Assembly: GCA_963720565.1 (NCBI GenBank)
Contig: CAVRFW010000005.1
Span: 128,001 to 192,000, forward strand
Direction of reading: 5' to 3'
Origin: Candidatus Bathyarchaeota archaeon
GTDB taxonomy: Archaea; Thermoproteota; Bathyarchaeia; Bathyarchaeales; Bathycorpusculaceae
DNA length: 64,000 bases
Numbering within the stretch: position 1 is the stretch's first letter; each line of letters opens with the position of its first letter. Made by a program: the position numbers and the translations under genes. The notes beneath the pieces were generated by a model. It was not told the DNA's origin, did no database searches, and was given only the letters and a program-made list of their open reading frames with translations. Below are positions 2,911-15,669 of the stretch, piece after piece.

Positions 2911-5900
2911 TCAGGTAAAGTCTGCAAGACTAACCTGCTTGGGTTTTTTGTTATCGAACATTGAAGTAATTTCATCCTTTATTAAGGCAATACGTTGAGC
3001 GTAGTATTTTGGCAAGGCGTACTTGTCAATCAACCGTTGCGCTGCAGCAAGGTATTTTTCGATACCGCCACGGTAGACTGTCAGGGTTAGCAGACCGCCA
3101 CAGAAAGGACATTTCCCGCGAAGGGGTAAACGACGGAACCGTTTGTTGCACGATTTGCATCTAAACCCCTGGGTTGAGAAGGCACGAAGGTTGCCAGCAA
3201 TATCTCGAATGAAATGGGTCGTCAAAACCTTCAATGCAACATATCGCACATCAACTGCATCGATTCTTTCTCCCAAGTCAAGCTGCATGTTCAGTTTTTC
3301 AATCATAGACTTGAACTGTTTATATGAGCTATCTGCGTTGCCCAAATTTACGTTTGAAACAGGAGTTGTAAACTTGAAGCCTTCAAACTGTGCTTCGGTA
3401 CCAAGTCTATGACCAACAATATCCATCAAAGGCCGAACCGCCCTTGCTTCAACCCTTTCCATAGTCTTTTCGTAAAATTCGAGAGGATAATCCTCATCAA
3501 CATCAAAATCATGTGCCTGCCGCTGAACTTCCTTGGTGTTAATAAACGGTGTCAAAAGCAAAGGAGCATCCATTATTCCTCCTATCTGGGCTGGCAGGTA
3601 TACACGTGAGAAATTTAGGAGCGTGTCCAAAGCAAGCATTATAGTGTCTTCGTCACCGTCGCAGTCACGCCGCTTAGCCGAATGCCACACTGGATGAGCG
3701 TAGCAGAGATGCAAATTTGTGAAGCCAATGATTCGTCCCAAGATACTTACGCAAGTGTGAGGAGCCAAGCCCATAACCAAGTGCCCAATAAGATCCTCGG
3801 CGCAAGTAACCTTGTAGTAGCTTGGAAGCTTGTAAACTCGGGTCAGAAGATCGTCTATGAAAGCTGATATTCTTAGGAAGTACTCTGCAGCAGTCCAGGG
3901 AATCACAACATCTTGAATTTTAAGCTCTAAAACCTGATCTGGATCAGTGAGAGGCGCCCCATGAATATCATGAGAGTAACCTAGCAGCCTGAGCTTTTCC
4001 ACTCTGACGCCGACTTCAGCAGGTTTGAAATGAGTCAAAGGCGCGTTTGTAGCGTCGAACCGGATTGTCCCATCCTTGTAAACAGACAAATCGTGCTTAG
4101 CCCGCAAAACACCTTTTTCAATAATCTCAGGAGTCTTGTTTTGATTTGTCATTCCCTTAACACCTTTCAGGATCTTAGGAAGAGGAACATCTATCGATTT
4201 GCACGAGTTCTCTAGCAAATCCCTGAAGTTAACAGCACATCTTTGATATTGCACCGCTTCAGCTTTGCAGGTGGGACAAATAGAAGATTTCAAAGACCTC
4301 CCGCAACGCGGGCAACTATTCTCGACGTCTGTCTCGCATCCACAGTCAAAACATTTCACTCTGTCAGTGTAGATCTTGCAATTCGGGCACTTACGCCTGG
4401 CTACCTCAACAAACACAGGCCCCTTCTTACCCGCCTCCACCAAGTCTCTATGAGAACCCCCAGCCAAGCTGACCGGATAGAGAACGTGAACCAAAGGTTT
4501 CATCTCTCGCCTCTTCGCCTTCTCAGGTCTTCCCATACGCGCGCCCACGAACGTAGGAGACTTGTCCCTAATCTCCACACCAGAAAGAAATGTCACCGCC
4601 TTCAGCGCGGATTCCGCAGTTACTGTATCCAAGGTTCGAAAAGTACCATAACCGAGACAGAAGGCAAATGCCCACGCGTCTGTTCCCTCAATGACAATAT
4701 TCTCCTCTAGCACTCTGTGAGGGGCAAAAATTTTTCTACACGCCTGAACTACGCTGGAGTCACTCTTCCCAACAATCCTGCTCACAAAGCCATTCTCGGA
4801 AGTCACTTCAGAGTCTGAGAGCCATTTCCACAAAACCTCAACTTCTTGTGTAGAAGATAGATTAGACCAGAAAAAAGTGAAGGCTGGATGCAGAGGCACA
4901 TGGAATTTATGAGACAAAATAGTCGCTTCCTCAGCAGACGGCTTGTTGCTGAAGGAGTCCTGCAACAAGGCTTCAAGTCTTTCCTCAGAAATTTTCGAGA
5001 GTTCCGAAACCTTCTTCAGGTCACACCCAAAACTCTCATCAAACGCCTTTCTTAAGTCCTTAACCCACCATTCTTCAACGTAACCAGAAGGCGAGAGAGC
5101 TTTGCTGGTGTAAAGAAAATCTCCGTAACTTATCAAAATATCGCCCAAGAAAAGGATCTTGGATATTTTTCCCTTAAAATCACCGAAGTTTTCAACGGAA
5201 ACGCGAGCTACTGAACCATCCTTTAACAGGACCACAGGGGGCTCCAGAGCATCCACAGGTACTGTGACACAGCCTTTTCCAGGCAGCTCTATACGCATTT
5301 GAGTACCAGCCGCCAGAAACTTGTCAACCACAAGCATGGTTGCCGGGTGAACCCCCACAGCTGACAACCCAGTGTTTCTCGACCGACCATATCTTAGCCT
5401 AAAACCTCCGCGCCTCGAAGGAAAGGAAAAAATGGGGCGCCCAGCAATAACGTCATCCATGAAGCCAGCGGATTTCTTTTCAGATTTTTTCCGGAACTCT
5501 CCAAGCCAATCCCATCCTTGAAAGCCAAGTTTTTCGACAATAACCAAAACCTTCGGAGCTCGTCCTACGATGCCGTCGTTGACTACTCTGAGCGCTCCGC
5601 CTCTAACGCGATTAGTCTCCACTCTCTGAAGGTTCCTAAAAGAGGAGACTTCAACGGGGTCAGATTCTGTGCCAGTAACCTCAACAGGAAGCCAATTGAG
5701 TGCTTTCTTCAACTCTTCATCTGGAATATGATATTGGAAACGCCCTACCGACCGTTCGTATAGGCGAAGTTCCTCAAGGAATCGAGATATTTCCTCCGCC
5801 GTAGGTTTATACCGGTCAAGTCCGAGCAGTTTGCGTACAAAGTCACCTACAACAAGTGTCAGAGCTTGGTCTGTCCCTCCAGCCGACCTTATTGGTCCTG

Positions 5901-6348
5901 CGAAATATATACCAAGATACTTTGTACGGTCAAGGTTTGATTTTATTTTAACCTGAGCGATACCTTGTATAGGTGCTGCTGTGAGGCCTTCTGTGAAAAT
6001 CGCTAGCGCCGTACGAATTGCTTGTTCTGCTGCTGCTTCAGGTTCCATGTGCCCAAATTTGCCATGGATTATTTCTTCTGCGACTTTGAAAGCTATTTCT
6101 TCCCTTTCAAGTCTCGTGCTTAGTGCTCTTATGCTAACAGCTACATCCTTTGGTCCCACAAGTCCTTCCACGAGATCAGCTATGTCTTTAGCAATCACGC
6201 ATTCAGTCTTTAAAGTCGGATCGACCCCCTTTTCCCTTGCGTTTGCACTTATCGTATACAATAGCTCGAGCTGTTTTTCCAGGCTTCGGATATACGATTG
6301 ATAGGATTCACTCATATTATTGTTCAAGCACTTGCTCTCCGTGTACAT
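2911..6348 (-). CDS. polC: DNA polymerase D large subunit DP2
   Basis: AGPIRSAGGT, GGFRLRYGRSRNTG, KRRDCDGDED catalytic motif, Zn fingers; no intein seen. True start may be a few codons downstream. Confidence 0.97.
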   Translation of the reverse strand: MYTESKCLNNNMSESYQSYIRSLEKQLELLYTISANAREKGVDPTLKTECVIAKDIADLVEGLVGPKDVAVSIRALSTRLEREEIAFKVAEEIIHGKFGHMEPEAAAEQAIRTALAIFTEGLTAAPIQGIAQVKIKSNLDRTKYLGIYFAGPIRSAGGTDQALTLVVGDFVRKLLGLDRYKPTAEEISRFLEELRLYERSVGRFQYHIPDEELKKALNWLPVEVTGTESDPVEVSSFRNLQRVETNRVRGGALRVVNDGIVGRAPKVLVIVEKLGFQGWDWLGEFRKKSEKKSAGFMDDVIAGRPIFSFPSRRGGFRLRYGRSRNTGLSAVGVHPATMLVVDKFLAAGTQMRIELPGKGCVTVPVDALEPPVVLLKDGSVARVSVENFGDFKGKISKILFLGDILISYGDFLYTSKALSPSGYVEEWWVKDLRKAFDESFGCDLKKVSELSKISEERLEALLQDSFSNKPSAEEATILSHKFHVPLHPAFTFFWSNLSSTQEVEVLWKWLSDSEVTSENGFVSRIVGKSDSSVVQACRKIFAPHRVLEENIVIEGTDAWAFAFCLGYGTFRTLDTVTAESALKAVTFLSGVEIRDKSPTFVGARMGRPEKAKRREMKPLVHVLYPVSLAGGSHRDLVEAGKKGPVFVEVARRKCPNCKIYTDRVKCFDCGCETDVENSCPRCGRSLKSSICPTCKAEAVQYQRCAVNFRDLLENSCKSIDVPLPKILKGVKGMTNQNKTPEIIEKGVLRAKHDLSVYKDGTIRFDATNAPLTHFKPAEVGVRVEKLRLLGYSHDIHGAPLTDPDQVLELKIQDVVIPWTAAEYFLRISAFIDDLLTRVYKLPSYYKVTCAEDLIGHLVMGLAPHTCVSILGRIIGFTNLHLCYAHPVWHSAKRRDCDGDEDTIMLALDTLLNFSRVYLPAQIGGIMDAPLLLTPFINTKEVQRQAHDFDVDEDYPLEFYEKTMERVEARAVRPLMDIVGHRLGTEAQFEGFKFTTPVSNVNLGNADSSYKQFKSMIEKLNMQLDLGERIDAVDVRYVALKVLTTHFIRDIAGNLRAFSTQGFRCKSCNKRFRRLPLRGKCPFCGGLLTLTVYRGGIEKYLAAAQRLIDKYALPKYYAQRIALIKDEITSMFDNKKPKQVSLADFT

Positions 6349-7574: not shown

Positions 7575-8417
7575 ATGCAATTAGCATCCGACACTCTAGA
7601 AATAGACTTGTCAGAAGCCCTTACAAGAATCAAACTTTTCATTGAAGAATACATTAATAACGCGGGCGTAGATGGCATAGTGCTCGGTCTATCCGGTGGC
7701 ATTGACAGTAGCGTAGTGGCTGCGCTATGCAGCCTTTCGATAGGAGGAAACCGAGTGTTGGGTCTCCTGCTACCGGAGAGAGAAACGTACGACCCCAAAG
7801 ACATTGACGATGCAAAGTTCGTTGCAGAAAAATTCGGCATACAAACACAGGTCTGTGATATCACGCCTACGTTGAAAAGCCTCTATGCCACCATTCCTGT
7901 TTTTGATTCGAAAGAAAAGATTTGCAAAGGCAACATAAAAGCAAGAGCCAGAATGATTTACTTATACTACTATGCGAACAAATTGAACAGGATTGTATGC
8001 GGCAGCTCCGACAAGTCGGAAACAATGATGGGATACTTTACTAAATGGGGAGATGCAGCGGCAGACATAGCGCCAATTATGGATTTGTATAAGACCCAAG
8101 TCCGAAAACTCGCCATTCATTTGGGATTTCCTGATAAACTCGCAAACAAACCGGCTACTCCTGCTTTGTGGCCTGGTCAGCTTGCCGAAACAGAACTCGG
8201 CGTTAAATACGAAATCCTTGACCTTATTCTTTATGGACTTGAAAGGTTTATGACTGTGGAAGAAATAGCGCATCAATTAAACGTCAATCTTACTCTTGTT
8301 AAGAAAGTCAGAAACAAATGGCTATCAGCAGAGCACAAAAGGAGAACTCCATTGACAGTTAAGCTTGGATACAGAACCGTGGGAATAGATTTTCGACTCC
8401 CAAGAAGCGGAAACTAA
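7575..8417 (+). CDS. nadE: NH3-dependent NAD+ synthetase
   Basis: GLSGGIDS, GNIKARARM, GYFTKWGD motifs. Confidence 0.95.
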   Translation: MQLASDTLEIDLSEALTRIKLFIEEYINNAGVDGIVLGLSGGIDSSVVAALCSLSIGGNRVLGLLLPERETYDPKDIDDAKFVAEKFGIQTQVCDITPTLKSLYATIPVFDSKEKICKGNIKARARMIYLYYYANKLNRIVCGSSDKSETMMGYFTKWGDAAADIAPIMDLYKTQVRKLAIHLGFPDKLANKPATPALWPGQLAETELGVKYEILDLILYGLERFMTVEEIAHQLNVNLTLVKKVRNKWLSAEHKRRTPLTVKLGYRTVGIDFRLPRSGN

Positions 8418-9270: not shown

Positions 9271-9322
9271 CTCACGAACTCGTAAGAACCACAGGAATGT
9301 GCAAAATGCAGTAACGAATGAA

Positions 9323-9405
9323 ATCACAGTAATATCACAATGCCTGTGATATCATAGAATCACCAAATGCATGAACCGTGATGCTTTGTGACAAGTGATG
9401 TCACA
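9323..9405. repeat. Cluster of TGTGA/TCACA palindromic repeats (array 1)
   Basis: AGTAATATCACA 9328-9339, TGTGATATCATA 9345-9356, TGTGACAAGTGATGTCACA 9387-9405. Confidence 0.75.
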
Positions 9406-9840
9406 CTATTCAGAGGAGCCCTCTGAAATAGAGTTTTCTCTCCGAGAAACCAATCAAACGAAAGTCGAATAGATAAGAACGGCAGAAAGCGTGAAAACTT
9501 GATTAGCAAGCTCTTACGGAACAACTATGTCAGAAAAACGAAGAGGCTAACAAGTTTCAAACAGTCAAAACAAATAACTACCAATTAGAACGCCTTTCAA
9601 GTCCAATAAAAAACGTCAAAAAATACCTCTTATCAATATTATAACCCTAGAATCATTTCAAAACAATTAATAGCCACATTTCTAACCCTTTTTGCGAATT
9701 AAACCAAAATTATGAACTTTTCGATACTAAAATAGAGCTGAAGAGAGATTTTGGCCTGCTTTTTGGAGCCTACGAAAGATTTAAAGATGAAGCGCGTATA
9801 CAAAATTGTATGCATTTAACATTACCGAGGAGCAACGAAA

Positions 9841-10320
9841 ATGAAACTAAAAGAAGGCGTTCAAGCATGGCTAAATGGAGCATTAAGTGACCCCGTTGTC
9901 AAAATTCTCGCTAAAAATAGTCAATTAACAAGAACGCAACTCGAAACATTGCTCATAGACGTTTTAGCCGAGAATTTATCAAATAAACAGCTAAATTACG
10001 ACGAAAAAGCCAGATTAAGGCTAACAAACGCCAAAATAAGTCGCGGTGCCTTCAACAGGACATTAAAACAGTCAAAAGAAAATGTCATAAAATCGATCTA
10101 CACAGTTCTCCTTCTAGGCTACTTAGGCATCTTTGAAAGCACAACTTTAGACCCCTACATCGAGATAGCTAACAAATTACACGAGTACATTGAAGCTCAC
10201 AAAGGCAACCTCAATGAGGGTGAAGATACATAAGACCATCTAAAAGTCATTGATATCATCAGAAAGGAGCTAGAAACGAGCCTAAAACAGCTCTCAAGTC
10301 CATCAAAAGACACTCTGTGA
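9841..10320 (+). CDS. Putative HTH DNA-binding protein with in-frame TAA at 10231-10233
   Basis: LTRTQLETL...ISRGAFNRTLKQ resembles an HTH. The frame continues past TAA as DHLKVIDIIRKELETSLKQLSSPSKDTL to TGA 10320. Confidence 0.6.
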
Positions 10321-10588
10321 CGTCACAAATCACAACTTTCAACGCAAGATAAAGCTCGTGAAAGCATAAGAACAAACAAGCCAAAATTCACAAACTAAAT
10401 ACCAAAATAAGCTTAAAACAAAGACATTCTCCACGACGGAATTTTCGGAAATTATTGGCATAGTTCCCTGCTCAACTGTGATATGTGATGTCATAGGTGA
10501 ATTTTCGAAGAAAGCACCATAAAACTTAAATCTTTACCATAAGACTGTGATATGTGATGCAACAAACTAGGTCACATACAAATCACAG
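10316..10588. repeat. TGTGA/TCACA repeat array 2
   Basis: Perfect palindrome TGTGACGTCACA 10316-10327; exact 16-bp direct repeat ACTGTGATATGTGATG at 10475-10490 and 10544-10559; further TCACA half-sites to about 10588. Confidence 0.8.
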
Positions 10589-10599
10589 AGGGGAATCTT

Positions 10600-11313
10600 G
10601 TGATTGAGCTCTCAGCAACACTCGTTATAGTGTTAATCTTGGTCACAATAGGAGCCTCGATAGAGTACTACAGGCAAATCCGAAAGACGCAAAGAGAATA
10701 TGAAAATGCCAAGAGCGCTGTTGAAAACATTGTTCTGAGTTTCAATAGAGAACTAAGAAGGGAAGCGGAAAGACTAGAGTTAGTAGCGTATAAGGTCGAG
10801 GGCAACAATGCTAGAGAAGACACCAACAGCAAGCGAATTGATTCAATCGAGATGAAAGTCGAGCCCTTGGAAAGTCTTCTTAGCGCGACATCAGAAAACA
10901 ATCAAGGCATTGTGTCGAAAGTCACCGAAGTCGATACTAAAGTGCAAGGACTCGAATTAGCCCAGGAGAGGCTAATAGCCAAAATCACGGGATTAGAGGA
11001 TGAAATGCAGAAATTCACATTCGCCCCTGAAATGAAGAGCGAGCCAGTTATGCCTATCAGAAGAGACAAGGCATTAGCGACATTGACTGAAACAGAGATA
11101 ATGGTGTTGGAAATGTTGTTATCTGAGGGCTCGAAAACGGCTCCTGAGATAAAAGAGAGAGTAGGACTCAGCAGGGAACATACCGCAAGACTGATGAAGA
11201 AACTCTATGAGGAGGGCTACCTGGAAAGAGAAACCGGTAAGATTCCATTCAGGTACAGCGCCAAACAAGAATTGGAAAAATTCCTAAAGAAGCCCGAAAA
11301 CCAACAGGCCTGA
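10600..11313 (+). CDS. Membrane-anchored coiled-coil protein with C-terminal winged HTH
   Basis: Hydrophobic N-terminus (LSATLVIVLILVTIGASI), ~120 aa heptad-rich segment, then LTETEIMVLEML...TAPEIKERVGLSREHTARLMKKLYEEGYLER wHTH. Confidence 0.8.
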   Translation: MIELSATLVIVLILVTIGASIEYYRQIRKTQREYENAKSAVENIVLSFNRELRREAERLELVAYKVEGNNAREDTNSKRIDSIEMKVEPLESLLSATSENNQGIVSKVTEVDTKVQGLELAQERLIAKITGLEDEMQKFTFAPEMKSEPVMPIRRDKALATLTETEIMVLEMLLSEGSKTAPEIKERVGLSREHTARLMKKLYEEGYLERETGKIPFRYSAKQELEKFLKKPENQQA

Positions 11314-11551
11314 CTTACCCAGAGAGGACGATTTTTTGCTTAAGTGTTTTTGTTCCTCCATCTACTTAAGAAATTTCAGCGAGGCGTGAGGACGGTAATT
11401 AACTCTCCAGTGTCTGTCTAGATAATCCGAGTGGCGAGAGGTTTTTGTTTGGACCACAAACTTATTCTTGGTTCCAATATAGCGTGCATGAGGGCATCTT
11501 AGGTAAATTCCCAGATTACTTGCTCTCTTGAGCACCGGGACGCGTTAAATC

Positions 11552-11995
11552 TTACTTCAACTGTTTCTGAATTATTGCCTGCGGAGCGCTTGGCGCAATC
11601 TTGTATTTCATGTTATTAGGTCCTCCTGTTCTCAGAAGAAAACCCCTGTTAGACATTCTAGCAAGATATGTTGAGACCGTACTGAGGCTTATTGGCTCTT
11701 TTAGTTCCTGTTCATAGACCGCCTGGATGTCTTTCGAAGAAAACCAAATCAAGGGAAAACTTTTCTGCGTTATGAAGCGCATTTTGTCAAATCTGGAAAG
11801 ATTATTCTTCGCGCCAGGGTTGGCAGCGTTAGAGACTGTGGCTTCTTCCGGCATGCCGCCTAGTAATTCAACGAGATCCAGTAATCGAACTGCTTTGTCT
11901 CGCGTTATTTGTCCCTCGAATGCGATAGTGTATCGATTACCTTCGCTATCGAATAGCTCTATACGCATTTTTCGAGCCGGCATTGAGTGGCTCAC
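11552..11995 (-). CDS. Putative DNA-binding protein, C-terminal winged helix
   Basis: WFSSKDIQAVYEQ...ISLSTVSTYLARMSNRGFL wHTH; small N-terminal beta domain; GTG start. Confidence 0.75.
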   Translation of the reverse strand: MSHSMPARKMRIELFDSEGNRYTIAFEGQITRDKAVRLLDLVELLGGMPEEATVSNAANPGAKNNLSRFDKMRFITQKSFPLIWFSSKDIQAVYEQELKEPISLSTVSTYLARMSNRGFLLRTGGPNNMKYKIAPSAPQAIIQKQLK

Positions 11996-12006
11996 CCTAA
12001 GAGATG

Positions 12007-12318
12007 TTCACAAGCTTTACACTTCACAACTTATAGCTGTTATGGTTAAATCAGCAGCAGTGAAAAGTCAATTTCAGTTCGGAAAAGATGAAATAGGCTG
12101 AATTTGCACTGTTTTCATAATTACAACCTTCACAAGAATCTGATTTCACCAAACAAATTCATGCTTTACTCAATTATGTATTTGCATTGGAAGCGTAGGG
12201 GGGTCTTCTTCACAGAAAAGGACCATAAAAATAGTTATTGTATTAGAAATAGAGGTTGAAATGAGGCAGTTTTATTGCAAATTCACACGGACTTCACAAA
12301 ATGTGAACAGTATGTGAT
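12007..12318. repeat. TTCACA repeat array
   Basis: TTCACA at 12007, 12023, 12129, 12209, 12282, 12293; inverted pair TTCACA-AAA-TGTGAA at 12293-12307. Confidence 0.7.
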
Positions 12319-12771
12319 TTGAAGGGTTACATACACTATGAAAATAACAAAGTTAGAGTATTTAGAGCAAATGGGATGAAGATGCTAAAAAGTGTCAAAA
12401 TATGTAAGAATGTTCAAAGTCTTTCAATAGAATGGGATAAGACAGCCACCCCTTCATTTCCTCTCGAAAAGTTTCTGAGAAGAAGACAATAACAGGGTGG
12501 AAAAAAGATTAGTTGAGGATTATCTAAAAAAATGAATAACAAATACTTATTATATGCTCAGTGTTGCTTAGGCTTCAGAGTATATTTCCTATTAAAGGAA
12601 ATCATAACAAATTCTTAATAGTATAGTATATTTCCAGTAGAAACTTTGGGGTGTGTGGCTGTCTTTACTTTACCGCCTGCTGCTTTAAGCTTACATCACA
12701 TTTTAGGATTGTCGTGCTTCAAAACTACTTTTTTGTACTGCATCCTTTATCTGCTCCACTCGAAATAACGG
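12181..12771. promoter_or_regulatory. Replication origin (oriC) with ORB elements and AT-rich unwinding element
   Basis: ORB-like TTTCCAGTAGAAACTTTGGGG 12631-12651 (+) and TTTCGAGAGGAAATGAAGGGG 12449-12469 (-) flank an AT-rich tract. Weaker boxes at 12181-12203 and 12755-12771. Directly upstream of cdc6. Confidence 0.85.
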
Positions 12772-12799
12772 TGTTGCCTTTGAAAGTGGTGGGTGCAAA

Positions 12800-14017
12800 A
12801 TGGGAAGTCATAGCACAATTGATGGAATATTCGAAAATTTCGTGAAGAGTGCCCAACTATTTAGAGATCGAGAGGTACTCAGGCACGACTATCTTCCTGA
12901 AAGCCTGCCTCACAGAGAAGAGCAAATTAGGCTTCTAGGTGAAACAGTGGCGCCAGTTTTGAAAGACGCTCGTTGTTCAAACATTTTCATTTACGGCAAA
13001 ACAGGTACAGGTAAGACTGCTGTGACCAAATACGTTTTGGGTCATTTGGAGACGAAAGCAAAGGAGTACGGTGCGCCAGTTAGATTTTCTTATGTTAACT
13101 GCAGGATGACAGGGTCAGCGTATAGAGTTTTTGCAAGTCTTACCCAGAGTCTGGGGATGTCTGTTCCTTTTACGGGGTTGTCTGTGGGAGAAGTTTTTGA
13201 TAGGTTTCGAGGGAGATTGGATTCTTCCCGAACTAATTTCATAGCTGTCTTAGATGAGATTGATGCCTTGATAAAAGATCGCGGAGATAGCGTTCTTTAC
13301 GAGCTAACCCGGATTAATGAAGGTCTCAGCAAGAGCAAGTTTTCCCTTATCGGTATATCCAATGACCTTCGATTGAAAGAGTTTCTGGACCCGCGCGTTT
13401 TTAGTTCATTAAGCGAGGAAGAAATAGTTTTCAGACCTTATGATGCAAGCGAATTGCGGAACATTCTTCTTGAGCGTTCAAAGTTGTCCTTCCACGAGGG
13501 TTCTCTTTCCGATGCAGCTTTGAGCATTTGCTCAGCCTTAGCTGCGGCAGAACATGGAGATGCTAGGCGTGCTCTTGATTTATTACGTGTTGCAGGTGAG
13601 GTTGCTGAGCGACGAGGTTCGAAACTGGTTTCTGAAGAACATGTTAGAGAGGCAGAGAAGCATATTGAGCATGACAGAGTCGTGGAAGCGTTGAAGAATT
13701 TGACTTTGCATTCAAAGCTTGTGCTTCTTAGTGTTTACCGTTTGAGTAAGGCGAGTGCAACTACTGGTGAGATTTTTGATGTTTACAGTCAACTCTGTGG
13801 CGAACTGGGATCCGGGCTCCTTACTCAGAGGCGTCTTGGCACTTTAATTAATGAACTTGACTCGATGGGTCTTGTGAATGCAAAAGTCGTGAGTATGGGG
13901 CGGTATGGTCGCACAAAGAAGATTAGGCTTGAGATATCACGGACTCTTGTCAAGGATGTTTTCCACGGTGATGCTCGACTAGGGCGCTTCTTCGATCCTA
14001 TCCGTAATTCCCTTTAG
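12800..14017 (+). CDS. cdc6: Orc1/Cdc6 replication initiator
   Basis: YLPESLPHRE, GKTGTGKT, LDEID, GDARRALDLL, GRYGRT wing. Confidence 0.97.
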   Translation: MGSHSTIDGIFENFVKSAQLFRDREVLRHDYLPESLPHREEQIRLLGETVAPVLKDARCSNIFIYGKTGTGKTAVTKYVLGHLETKAKEYGAPVRFSYVNCRMTGSAYRVFASLTQSLGMSVPFTGLSVGEVFDRFRGRLDSSRTNFIAVLDEIDALIKDRGDSVLYELTRINEGLSKSKFSLIGISNDLRLKEFLDPRVFSSLSEEEIVFRPYDASELRNILLERSKLSFHEGSLSDAALSICSALAAAEHGDARRALDLLRVAGEVAERRGSKLVSEEHVREAEKHIEHDRVVEALKNLTLHSKLVLLSVYRLSKASATTGEIFDVYSQLCGELGSGLLTQRRLGTLINELDSMGLVNAKVVSMGRYGRTKKIRLEISRTLVKDVFHGDARLGRFFDPIRNSL

Positions 14018-14112: not shown

Positions 14113-15669
14113 CTAGATGAAGGACAGAACATTAGTTTCAAGGGTTTGGAGGTTTATCACCGGCACTTTGCCCGGCGTAGGCATTAACCCCAGCTTTTGC
14201 ATGTAGTCTGTCTGATCTTGCCATCCGCCCGAGTTAACAACTAGGACACCACGATAATTGCAGCATCCCACAACGTGTACGTGTCCCGCGTGAAAAACGT
14301 CGGGTAATCGATCTATTACAAGGAAATCTCGGTTTTCAGGCGATAACAATGTTTTCCCCCCGTATGTGGGTGCTAAATGGCGGCTTTGAAGGAGTAGTTT
14401 CATTGCTTTCTCAGGGTATGCATGACTCAAGCCAGGAATTGAAGCGATGACATCATCTAGACTGCGACCGTGGTACATTAAAACTTCCACTTTGTGAAGG
14501 CCGACCAAACAGGGGTCTCCAAGCGAGTGTACTCTCCTATATTTTTGCATATCACTCAAGAACTCATTTGATATTGCAGGCTGAGGGAGTGCTTTCCTAG
14601 GTGCGTCATGGTTTCCAGGAGAAACGATGACTTCGATATAGTCTGGTATTTGCCCGATTAGTTTTGAGGCAAACCTGTATTGTTTATGTACGTCTTTTAT
14701 GACGAGTTCCTTAATCTGGTTCGGGTAGACACCTACTCCGTCAACTATGTCGCCTGCAATTAGTACGTATTTGACGCGACCAGCAATTTCTCTCATTGTG
14801 TTGTTTCCGTATTTGCCGTTAAGCCATAAGATGAACCGGTTGAACGCTTCTCTGTTGAATTTTGTGCTACCTACGTGTATGTCGGAGGTAAGCACAGCAT
14901 AAACGGGTTCTGAAGACCTGCGTTGAGGCTTCTGACCTACTTCTGGAAAAATTATGTCTTCAGCTAGGAACAGCTTGCTTCTGGTTTTTACGCCTGCAAC
15001 ACAAACGACTTGGTCGGGAAGTAGCAACTGCGCTTTTCTATGCAACTCCTCAGGCGCGTTATGAGAAACTAGTATGCTGGCGCTTGCTTGCAAGTCTTCA
15101 ACCGTGATTATAATTTGTCTTTTTACCTCTCGTTTTTCAGTTACCATGCCTATTATTTTCAGTTTGGTCTTAGCGGGTGACTTCAATGCCTCAATAATCG
15201 GAGTTGCTGCCTTGACGTCTATCCTCTGTCGTAGAAGGCGTTCAATCCGTTTGAATCGATCCTGAAAGTATTGGAGGTATTCTTCTATTGTTCCATTGGA
15301 GGTGAGTTTCCCTGTTGGGTCTTCAATTATGCTAAGCTCTGATTCCACATCCTTTGCATAAGGATGAAAACTGCTGTTGGCTTCAGTGATTGGTTCTTCT
15401 GCCCTCTCTATTTGCTCTTCCTCTTTCGGTTGTTCGGGCATTTCCTCAATAGGACCTGGCTGACTAAGGAGTGTTTCCAGAAAGACTCTGTCAATAAATA
15501 CTGGTTTTTCGTTTAACTCCTCAATTCTCAGCAACGCCCTGTTCATAATGGCAGTGGGGTCGTCAGTTAGGGCTGCGGCGCTTAGGAGTTCAAAGGCTTC
15601 CCTGTCTAGTTGGTATCCCGCTGCAATAGTTGTTTCAACGGCTCTCTGTAGCCTTTCTATTCCACTCAC
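14113..15669 (-). CDS. polB: DNA polymerase D small subunit DP1 (exonuclease)
   Basis: OB fold plus SDIHVGS, AGDIVDG, PGNHD, HGRS, GHVH phosphoesterase motifs. Confidence 0.96.
   Translation of the reverse strand: MSGIERLQRAVETTIAAGYQLDREAFELLSAAALTDDPTAIMNRALLRIEELNEKPVFIDRVFLETLLSQPGPIEEMPEQPKEEEQIERAEEPITEANSSFHPYAKDVESELSIIEDPTGKLTSNGTIEEYLQYFQDRFKRIERLLRQRIDVKAATPIIEALKSPAKTKLKIIGMVTEKREVKRQIIITVEDLQASASILVSHNAPEELHRKAQLLLPDQVVCVAGVKTRSKLFLAEDIIFPEVGQKPQRRSSEPVYAVLTSDIHVGSTKFNREAFNRFILWLNGKYGNNTMREIAGRVKYVLIAGDIVDGVGVYPNQIKELVIKDVHKQYRFASKLIGQIPDYIEVIVSPGNHDAPRKALPQPAISNEFLSDMQKYRRVHSLGDPCLVGLHKVEVLMYHGRSLDDVIASIPGLSHAYPEKAMKLLLQSRHLAPTYGGKTLLSPENRDFLVIDRLPDVFHAGHVHVVGCCNYRGVLVVNSGGWQDQTDYMQKLGLMPTPGKVPVINLQTLETNVLSFI

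Follow-up and report, generated by a model that had tools for sequence, protein, structure and literature searches.

A conserved origin-flanking module of Thermoproteota with three predicted protein-site pairs

We have analyzed a stretch of 64,000 nucleotides of Candidatus Bathyarchaeota archaeon (assembly GCA_963720565.1, contig CAVRFW010000005.1, positions 128,001 to 192,000), here called the window, in which three genes, A, B and C, lie beside a replication origin together with three kinds of short DNA sites, motifs 1, 2 and 3. Compared over many relatives, these genes and sites look like three separable protein-site pairs rather than one shared system, and the assignment of motifs 1, 2 and 3 to B, A and C, respectively, is probably right. 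We drew this pairing because gene and motif are lost together, and from such co-loss alone. Judged by the distribution of its sequences, the module is ancient. A first-pass annotation of the same DNA had proposed a joint system working on one motif; the single motif had to be abandoned, since three motifs were found, each with its own gene.

Motif 1 and protein B

The first-pass annotation had listed four 19-mers, and these were recovered exactly at 9387, 10477 and 10546 (plus strand) and at 10316-10334 (minus strand), unique in the genome. The recurring motif of ~19 bp is real, but what recurs is the 10-bp palindrome GTGAYRTCAC, accompanied by additional half-sites (TGTGAY) often at 7-bp steps, and not a fixed 19-mer. 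With a matrix made from the four 19-mers, these score 27.6-28.7, and no other site of the 2.09-Mb genome scores above 16.0; this matrix is self-trained and the weight therefore rests on other tests. The density of TGTGA/TCACA is maximal at the locus (27 per 3.5 kb versus a genome mean of 5.7), and the two intergenic stretches contain 18 half-sites, a number reached by none of 1000 dinucleotide shuffles (mean 3.0, maximum 10). The strict palindrome has four copies genome-wide, three of them within 2.5 kb at the locus. A genome scan for origin enrichment had been suggested as a check, and it placed motif 1 at this locus and not over promoters in general. For motifs 1 and 2 no genome-wide regulon appeared in the genomes checked, where the off-locus copies were scattered and mostly near control level.

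Across relatives motif 1 tracks B. There were 152 strict sites in the 61 Bathyarchaeia loci with B (743 kb) and 3 in the 22 loci without it (262 kb), all of them in one genome, G081, and eight control palindromes gave 0-3 sites each in the same comparison (L135, a second stretch of the genome of L062, was excluded from the count). The association extends to 20 further distant loci, with half-sites at 2.06 per kb where B is present versus 0.68 where it is absent and four control words flat; seven of the eight distant loci with B had no A in view. The families lacking B occupy five places on a four-protein tree whose deep nodes are weak; 21 rows with too little sequence had been left out of it.

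The positions of the sites are also informative. Upstream of A, the window has an array of eight half-sites at 9323..9405, which includes the 19-mer at 9387-9405, and 27 of 60 loci have motif-1 palindromes at a distance of 100-700 bp ahead of A. Another site (10316..10334) overlies the natural stop codon of A (TGA at 10318-10320). A palindrome is located near the 3' end of A in 59 of 60 loci, and A terminates with TGA in 46 of 59 relatives with B versus 6 of 17 without. The array at 10477..10604, with the 19-mers at 10477 and 10546, covers the promoter of B, including a TATA-like box near 10521-10531, and its start codon. A distal strict palindrome, GTGATATCAC (7855..7864), is found within the coding sequence of nadE, and the nadE of relatives likewise bears motif-1 sites. 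Inside the origin of the window itself there was no motif-1 palindrome. These arrays may resemble the heptad arrays bound by the omega repressor, and also the BlaI/CopY box.

When A and B are more than 800 bp apart, the palindrome is missing from the B promoter (0/17) and is kept at the 3' end of A (17/17), where in ten of the 17 loci it faces the end of a convergent hypF. Within open reading frames we counted 37 strict sites, 34 of them at most 920 bp from A, and the host genes are unrelated (nadE, hypF and an aminotransferase-like gene). At one position of hypF, 8 of 15 loci (not independent of one another) carry the palindrome, through uncommon codons with a joint frequency of ~0.03-0.08 in the same genes; the hypF of the window genome, located elsewhere, has no palindrome. 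In Methanomethylicia-side loci, with no A seen, arrays are found at convergent gene ends, at the B promoter and inside oriC.

Several assignments could be discarded on these data. A single motif common to all three proteins was rejected, the three motifs segregating with the three genes. Binding of motif 1 by C was rejected as well, since lineages without C retain the arrays, and so was binding by A alone, because 16 loci bearing A have lost both B and the sites; the half-sites that accompany B in loci with no A found also speak against the latter. Pure self-regulation as the main role of B was rejected too. Its sites are not simply for self-control because displaced B promoters carry none and because the sites recur inside neighbouring coding genes. 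Their positions at the stop codon of A, at convergent gene ends and in coding regions appear a better fit to a structural array than to self-regulation. The pattern likewise seems to suit a bridged array better than one operator, but a looping repressor with auxiliary operators would give a similar picture.

We consider B the predicted binder of motif 1. Its gene (10600..11313, plus strand) encodes an N-terminal membrane anchor, a coiled coil (residues ~28-140) and a C-terminal winged helix (162-222), an architecture already seen in the first-pass annotation and upheld here by Pfam and by hydrophobicity. The Pfam matches are to TrmB (E 1e-9), MarR and coiled-coil entries; they pass domain-level cut-offs only, and B is far below the cut-offs of Lrs14/Sta1. 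The N-terminal hydrophobic segment (Kyte-Doolittle, KD, 2.6) is followed by basic residues, and the recognition-helix residues R192, E193, H194, R197 and K200 are invariant among 43 homologues. Anchor, coiled coil and winged helix were recognized from sequence in 76 of 92 homologues of B.

The origin, protein C and motif 3

The origin is placed at 12180..12775, a region with no assigned strand that holds boxes like the origin recognition box (ORB) and an AT-rich stretch. A strict ORB pattern had no match in five genomes, and a matrix trained on relatives, with the window excluded, was used in its place. It detected boxes at 12180 (plus, weak), 12447 (minus), 12630 (plus) and 12752 (plus). Two strong boxes are the best matrix matches of the whole genome, inverted about a putative AT-rich unwinding stretch (~12471-12629; GC 0.315-0.325). 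Adjoining is cdc6 (12800..14017, plus strand), an Orc1-type initiator gene above the TIGR02928 cut-off; the genome has a single further cdc6 paralogue, 31% identical. Inverted ORBs, an AT-rich stretch and an adjoining Orc1-type cdc6 are what characterizes an archaeal oriC, and all were found here. By its sequence, then, the origin is real, as the first-pass annotation had it, and the 19-mers lie 1.6-2.9 kb from it.

Gene C (11552..11983, minus strand) most likely starts at the ATG at 11983, giving 143 amino acids as in nearly all relatives among the matches listed. The protein would consist of an N-terminal beta-hairpin and helix, a linker and a C-terminal winged helix, weakly BlaI/Fur-like. 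The earlier call of a second winged-helix protein at this place agrees with the structure model, which shows a winged helix with structure matches at Z 9-11 over ~70 residues; by sequence, the search of solved structures gave nothing significant (best E 0.011).

Around the promoter of C and the distal ORB are the TTCACA/TGTGAA words of motif 3, at 12007, 12023, 12129, 12209, 12282, 12293 and 12302 (12007..12307, no strand). They form the densest 400-bp window of the genome (7 versus a mean of 0.46), and away from the origin motif 3 is not dense. In 64 loci with an adjoining C, the more general word TTMACA averages 6.5 copies versus 2.2 expected; in seven origins without C it has 0-3 copies versus 1.4-2.7 expected, and an eighth such origin is uninformative (21 versus 19.7). 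C is the predicted binder of motif 3. Gene and motif are interleaved with the ORBs at fixed offsets, and 20 of the 25 distant loci have an ORB-like box immediately upstream of C; for 15 of these 20 the retrieved stretch (~10 kb in 11 cases, 3.4 kb in 4) contained no cdc6. In family f19 the ORBs remain with C, and cdc6 is 3.3 kb off. The best reading of C is that of an accessory factor binding at the origin, with a role analogous to that of UBP (see below) and no kinship implied.

Protein A and motif 2

Gene A (9841..10320, plus strand; 159 codons) encodes a Tfx/sigma70-region-4-like helix-turn-helix (HTH) and a C-terminal helical hairpin. In the window it is disrupted by an in-frame TAA (10231-10233) that removes 29 codons, and relatives at 95-98% identity are intact; this may be either an assembly error or a nonsense allele. 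The HTH-like protein of the first-pass annotation is accordingly likely as regards its fold, but the full gene extends for 159 codons to 10320, broken by the TAA. The protein of the window matched no Pfam or NCBIfam family, while among 40 homologues three matched Sigma70_r4, three HTH_10 and one tfx (E 1.9e-6; 27.8 bits, below the cut-off of 60.25). The model is all-helical (predicted local distance difference test, pLDDT, 87.9), with helices at 31-46, 53-57 and 68-94. Fold search gave generic helical-hairpin matches only, which barely cover the HTH part, and a profile search of solved structures gave no match. From these sequence matches, A likely carries an HTH.

Just downstream of a predicted TATA-like box of A (9780..9786, plus strand) is motif 2, the palindrome GKATACA-N4-TGTATMC (9796..9813, no strand), which the earlier annotation had overlooked and which is the best matrix match in the genome. 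By eye, many relatives have a similar AT box ahead of this operator. By strict pattern, motif 2 was found in 50 of 59 loci bearing A. It also occurs in 77 of 77 Nitrosopumilaceae loci; of the 17 loci that have A and no B, 16 keep it, and none of the five loci with C alone has it. In the distant families f35, f39 and f44 A is present and motif 2 has no strict match. On this distribution, motif 2 is the predicted binding site of A.

Conservation of the module

Among 121 genomes of the class we found A in 93, B in 78 (single-protein search) and C in 73; in the phylum, 125 of 251 genomes were found to have A and 163 to have C, with several families giving no match to the A or C queries. The 60 loci collected around B (from 60 of the 78 genomes) contain A in 59 cases, C in 37 and cdc6 in 43. 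The order DP2-GGGPS-A-B-C-cdc6-DP1 recurs among distant families, and A-B-C-cdc6 was found in 74 of 80 loci, nearly all named Nitrosopumilaceae. Homologues extend to Caldarchaeales, Methanomethylicia, Nezhaarchaeales, Culexarchaeum and Thermofilaceae. Where synteny is broken, A-B is still 15-32 kb from cdc6. The synteny check recommended with the first-pass annotation thus found the genes linked to the origin over much of the phylum, from Bathyarchaeia to Nitrosopumilaceae. In their source records the homologues are named hypothetical or uncharacterized, with the exception of one A homologue, a predicted DNA-binding protein.

Each gene can be lost or relocated singly. A clade of families f17, f14, f26 and f11 (24 genomes) has this cdc6 in 1 genome, C in 1, A in 18 and B in 19; in 23 of the 24 genomes neither C nor this cdc6 was found, and an origin-less state or alternative initiation is possible there. 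Two genomes of this clade, G030 and G075, have the 30%-identical cdc6 paralogue alone (example loci of the clade are L059, L063, L083 and L092). In G081 (locus L148, G081:C1:1714000-1728000; 86% complete) A, its operator and motif-1 sites are kept, and B, C and this cdc6 were not found; a recent loss or an assembly gap is possible.

A HerA-NurA-like pair, hypF and an HTH-CBS gene were considered as core parts and rejected, each being present in some lineages only. The HerA-like ATPase gene and the NurA-like gene (the latter likeness by sequence, without a Pfam match) lie between B and C at L036:5743-8284 and in eight other loci, and are missing from the window. hypF and HTH-CBS accompany B and C in L058, L059, L079, L091, L249-L254, L258 and L264, and may be part of the ancestral block. 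In Nitrosopumilaceae (L115:7040-7340, L116, L124-L126) a short open reading frame between B and C resembles, by eye, an AbrB/SpoVT-type hairpin protein. Caldarchaeum-side loci (L105) have a coiled-coil protein with a MazE-like end ahead of A, and in family f10 (L075, L082, L087, L094; oriented ~800-2800) an ESCRT-III/CdvB-like gene, also by eye, is located a few kb upstream of A.

The genes at window positions 2911-6348 and 14113-15669 we take to be, by their sequence, those of the DNA polymerase D subunits. They bracket the block, one per side, and this layout is kept in many relatives. The first-pass annotation had remarked on the absence of a ParA/SegA ATPase, and our gene and domain analysis of the window agrees: there was none in the module, nor among the conserved neighbours of 100 loci. 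Elsewhere in the genome there are two ParA/MinD-like ATPases below all family cut-offs (G000:C1:28230-28760 and C4:25389-25901) and, away from the module, a full-length SMC just under its cut-off (G000:C9:227242-230763).

Functional interpretation

Our favoured reading has B bridging and anchoring the flank of the origin, C serving the origin as an accessory factor and A regulating itself; we hold it tentatively, at somewhat less than an even chance. The module would be an ancient, lineage-dispensable neighbour of the origin in Thermoproteota, made of three separable protein-site pairs. B would be signal-anchored, with a cytoplasmic coiled coil of ~110 residues, probably ~16 nm long, bearing a winged helix that would sit on TGTGAY half-sites and GTGAYRTCAC palindromes over 1-5 kb beside oriC. 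Putative oligomers of B would bridge or loop these sites and, where the anchor is present, keep the flank of the origin membrane-bound. Acting alongside SMC, this would assist in positioning the origin and would not amount to an essential motor-driven partition system. C would bind TTMACA words about the distal ORB and assist or regulate the firing of the origin, and A would repress its own promoter through motif 2 from inside the stretch clamped by B. The least secure part is the role of the array in positioning rather than in transcription control.

The centromere-like membrane tether of the first-pass annotation survives in part. In its favour, the motif is confined to the locus, the genes are linked to the origin and the arrays follow a membrane-anchored B. 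Against it, B was not found in seven sampled families, the anchor is often missing and arrays persist where this cdc6 and ORBs were not found. The same kinds of observations weigh against our own reading. B was not found in f7, f13, f15, f16, f18, f19 and f20 by single-protein search, its absence being profile-confirmed in five genomes only, and because the deep nodes of the tree are weak its independent losses number 3-5 at best. Of 92 homologues, 16 have no anchor, and the same holds for 7 of another 8. Membrane attachment is not the invariant feature of the array, because anchorless B proteins keep sites, as in family f28 (3-4 sites). The array is also independent of the canonical origin, because the clade of f17, f14, f26 and f11 keeps arrays with neither this cdc6 nor, in 14 of 14 loci, ORBs found. 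The sites are few, and the array spans 1-5 kb versus hundreds of kb. G081 has sites without B; 3 of 60 B loci have no strict site nearby; and f35, f42 and most Nitrosopumilaceae likewise have no strict site nearby, half-sites only. Off the locus the strict word exceeds control in two of five further genomes (G297, 7 to 1; G075, 4 to 1), and some half-sites in hypF coincide with conserved Cys-Asp codons. As to C, 5 of 25 distant loci have it without an ORB, and in G143 it is ~500 kb from cdc6.

Nearly as likely as the favoured reading, at about one chance in three, is that B is a membrane-localised looping repressor over A and its own promoter, in an A-B-C cascade timed by replication of the origin, with attachment as a side effect. 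The lac O2 and O3 sites are auxiliary operators acting by looping. When A and B are close, a palindrome is at the B promoter in 35 of 43 loci, bracketing the TATA box and the start codon as an operator would, and the same is seen in Nitrosopumilaceae; this also counts against an array for positioning. The sites ~400-630 bp ahead of A and those overlying its stop codon, the TrmB/MarR/Lrs14-like winged helix of B and the anchorless variants that retain sites fit a repressor too. This explanation does not account for the loss of sites from the B promoter once B leaves A, nor for arrays at convergent gene ends and inside oriC where no A is in view, and no target of B or A turned up away from the locus.

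A bolder joint claim is rather unlikely in our opinion. B and the TGTGAY array would be the first integral-membrane origin anchor of archaea, ATPase-free and centromere-like, serving as a tether in Bathyarchaeia, ammonia-oxidising archaea and Caldarchaeales and still needed in a clade apparently left without its Orc1-type origin, and C would be a phylum-wide second origin-binding protein, more faithful to the ORB cluster than cdc6 itself.

Less probable still is that the whole module controls initiation, with a membrane-bound B sequestering or timing the new origin, C aiding or blocking Cdc6 at the ORBs and no role in segregation. The interleaving of C and motif 3 with the ORBs, the loss of C together with cdc6, the half-sites of Methanomethylicia-side B loci that extend into oriC and the DNA polymerase D genes flanking the module all point this way. 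Retention of A, B and arrays where this cdc6 and ORBs were not found points the other way, as does the lack of a motif-1 palindrome in the origin of the window. In a last explanation, the AT-rich flank of the origin would have given rise to the repeats by chance or as by-products of mutation, and the genes would be unrelated regulators left near it. The piecemeal loss and movement of the genes and the coming and going of hypF, the HerA-NurA-like pair and HTH-CBS within the block speak for it. It is very improbable, being largely refuted by the shuffle and control-word tests, the conservation across classes and the gene-specific co-loss.

In a review (PMC7617429), the positioning and segregation of the chromosome in most Thermoproteota and the cyclin-free timing of origin firing are presented as open questions. 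The locus described here offers three uncharacterized proteins, each with a target predicted from co-loss, beside the origin of archaea that are among the most abundant. The membrane-anchored B may hold the origin region at the membrane and could instead be a local gene regulator. The same gene order in Nitrosopumilaceae, which have cultured members, and the C homologues of cultured Thermofilaceae make both questions testable. Even if the regulator reading is true, the locus would hold a so far undescribed control circuit, tied to the origin and predating the separation of these classes.

Comparison with known systems

We found no description of genes A, B and C in the literature searched, and a passing mention elsewhere is possible. 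As single domains the proteins belong to familiar classes. A shares the HTH class with Tfx/EnfR, but A and its homologues are below the family cut-offs and the C-terminal part is different. B shares the winged-helix class with TrmB, Lrs14 and MarR, from which it differs by its anchor and long coiled coil.

Among archaeal segregation systems, SegAB and AspA-ParB-ParA, as described in a review (PMC5120986), require an adjacent ParA-type ATPase, encoded in SegAB by segA directly upstream of the DNA-binding gene, and use palindromic sites beside their own gene, AspA having a winged helix. The same review remarks on the centromere-or-operator ambiguity of SegB sites. Both systems, as presented there, are without a membrane anchor, whereas the module is without an adjoining ATPase. 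Neither ParB nor ParA was found at the locus or among its conserved neighbours, the aspA-parB-parA cassette was not encountered, and the contrast with SegAB and AspA-ParBA drawn in the first-pass annotation holds. A, B and C had no match to the SegB family in Pfam and NCBIfam scans, in which SegB itself was not compared directly.

For C, two origin proteins offer a comparison. WhiP, according to a review (PMC4010727), is the initiator at the ORB-less oriC3 of Sulfolobus, its gene beside the origin. C is likewise a winged-helix gene beside an origin, but of the ORB type and served by Cdc6; it keeps ORB-like boxes in most distant loci and is lost with cdc6. The model for C is UBP of Sulfolobales, for which a study (PMC12141716) describes one ucm midway between ORBs, >300 other sites and a distribution limited to Sulfolobales and Desulfurococcales, and raises the question of analogues in other lineages. 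As in UBP/ucm, a small, presumably site-specific protein would be paired with a non-ORB motif inside an Orc1-type origin. Motif 3 differs in having several copies, which flank the distal ORB and are restricted to the origin. It follows C as such a motif should, enriched where C adjoins and at background in the seven C-less origins. There was no UBP entry among the structure or sequence matches of C.

For B, the first-pass annotation had invoked RacA/ram of Bacillus. Winged helix, coiled coil, centromere-like sites and anchoring of the origin region support the analogy, but the architecture of RacA is not that of B. RacA of Bacillus subtilis (PMC4914108) is soluble, recognizes a GC-rich site, needs DivIVA and is sporulation-specific, with its winged helix N-terminal and its DivIVA-binding coiled coil C-terminal; B has its own anchor, AT-balanced local sites and the reverse domain order.

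No homology of B to RicO emerged from the Pfam or NCBIfam scans, in which no direct comparison was made. By analogy, the module would work most like RicO/ricS of Staphylococcus aureus, as presented in a bioRxiv preprint (10.64898/2026.03.06.710092). RicO combines an N-terminal DNA-binding domain, a coiled coil and a C-terminal amphipathic helix in direct contact with the membrane, has nine sites over ~700 kb and is accessory to SMC, which the genome studied here also encodes. B differs in its reversed domain order, its true hydrophobic anchor and its sites within 1-5 kb. What RicO and, by its sequence, B would have in common is a single protein that joins a DNA-binding and a membrane part and is paired with few specific sites near the origin.

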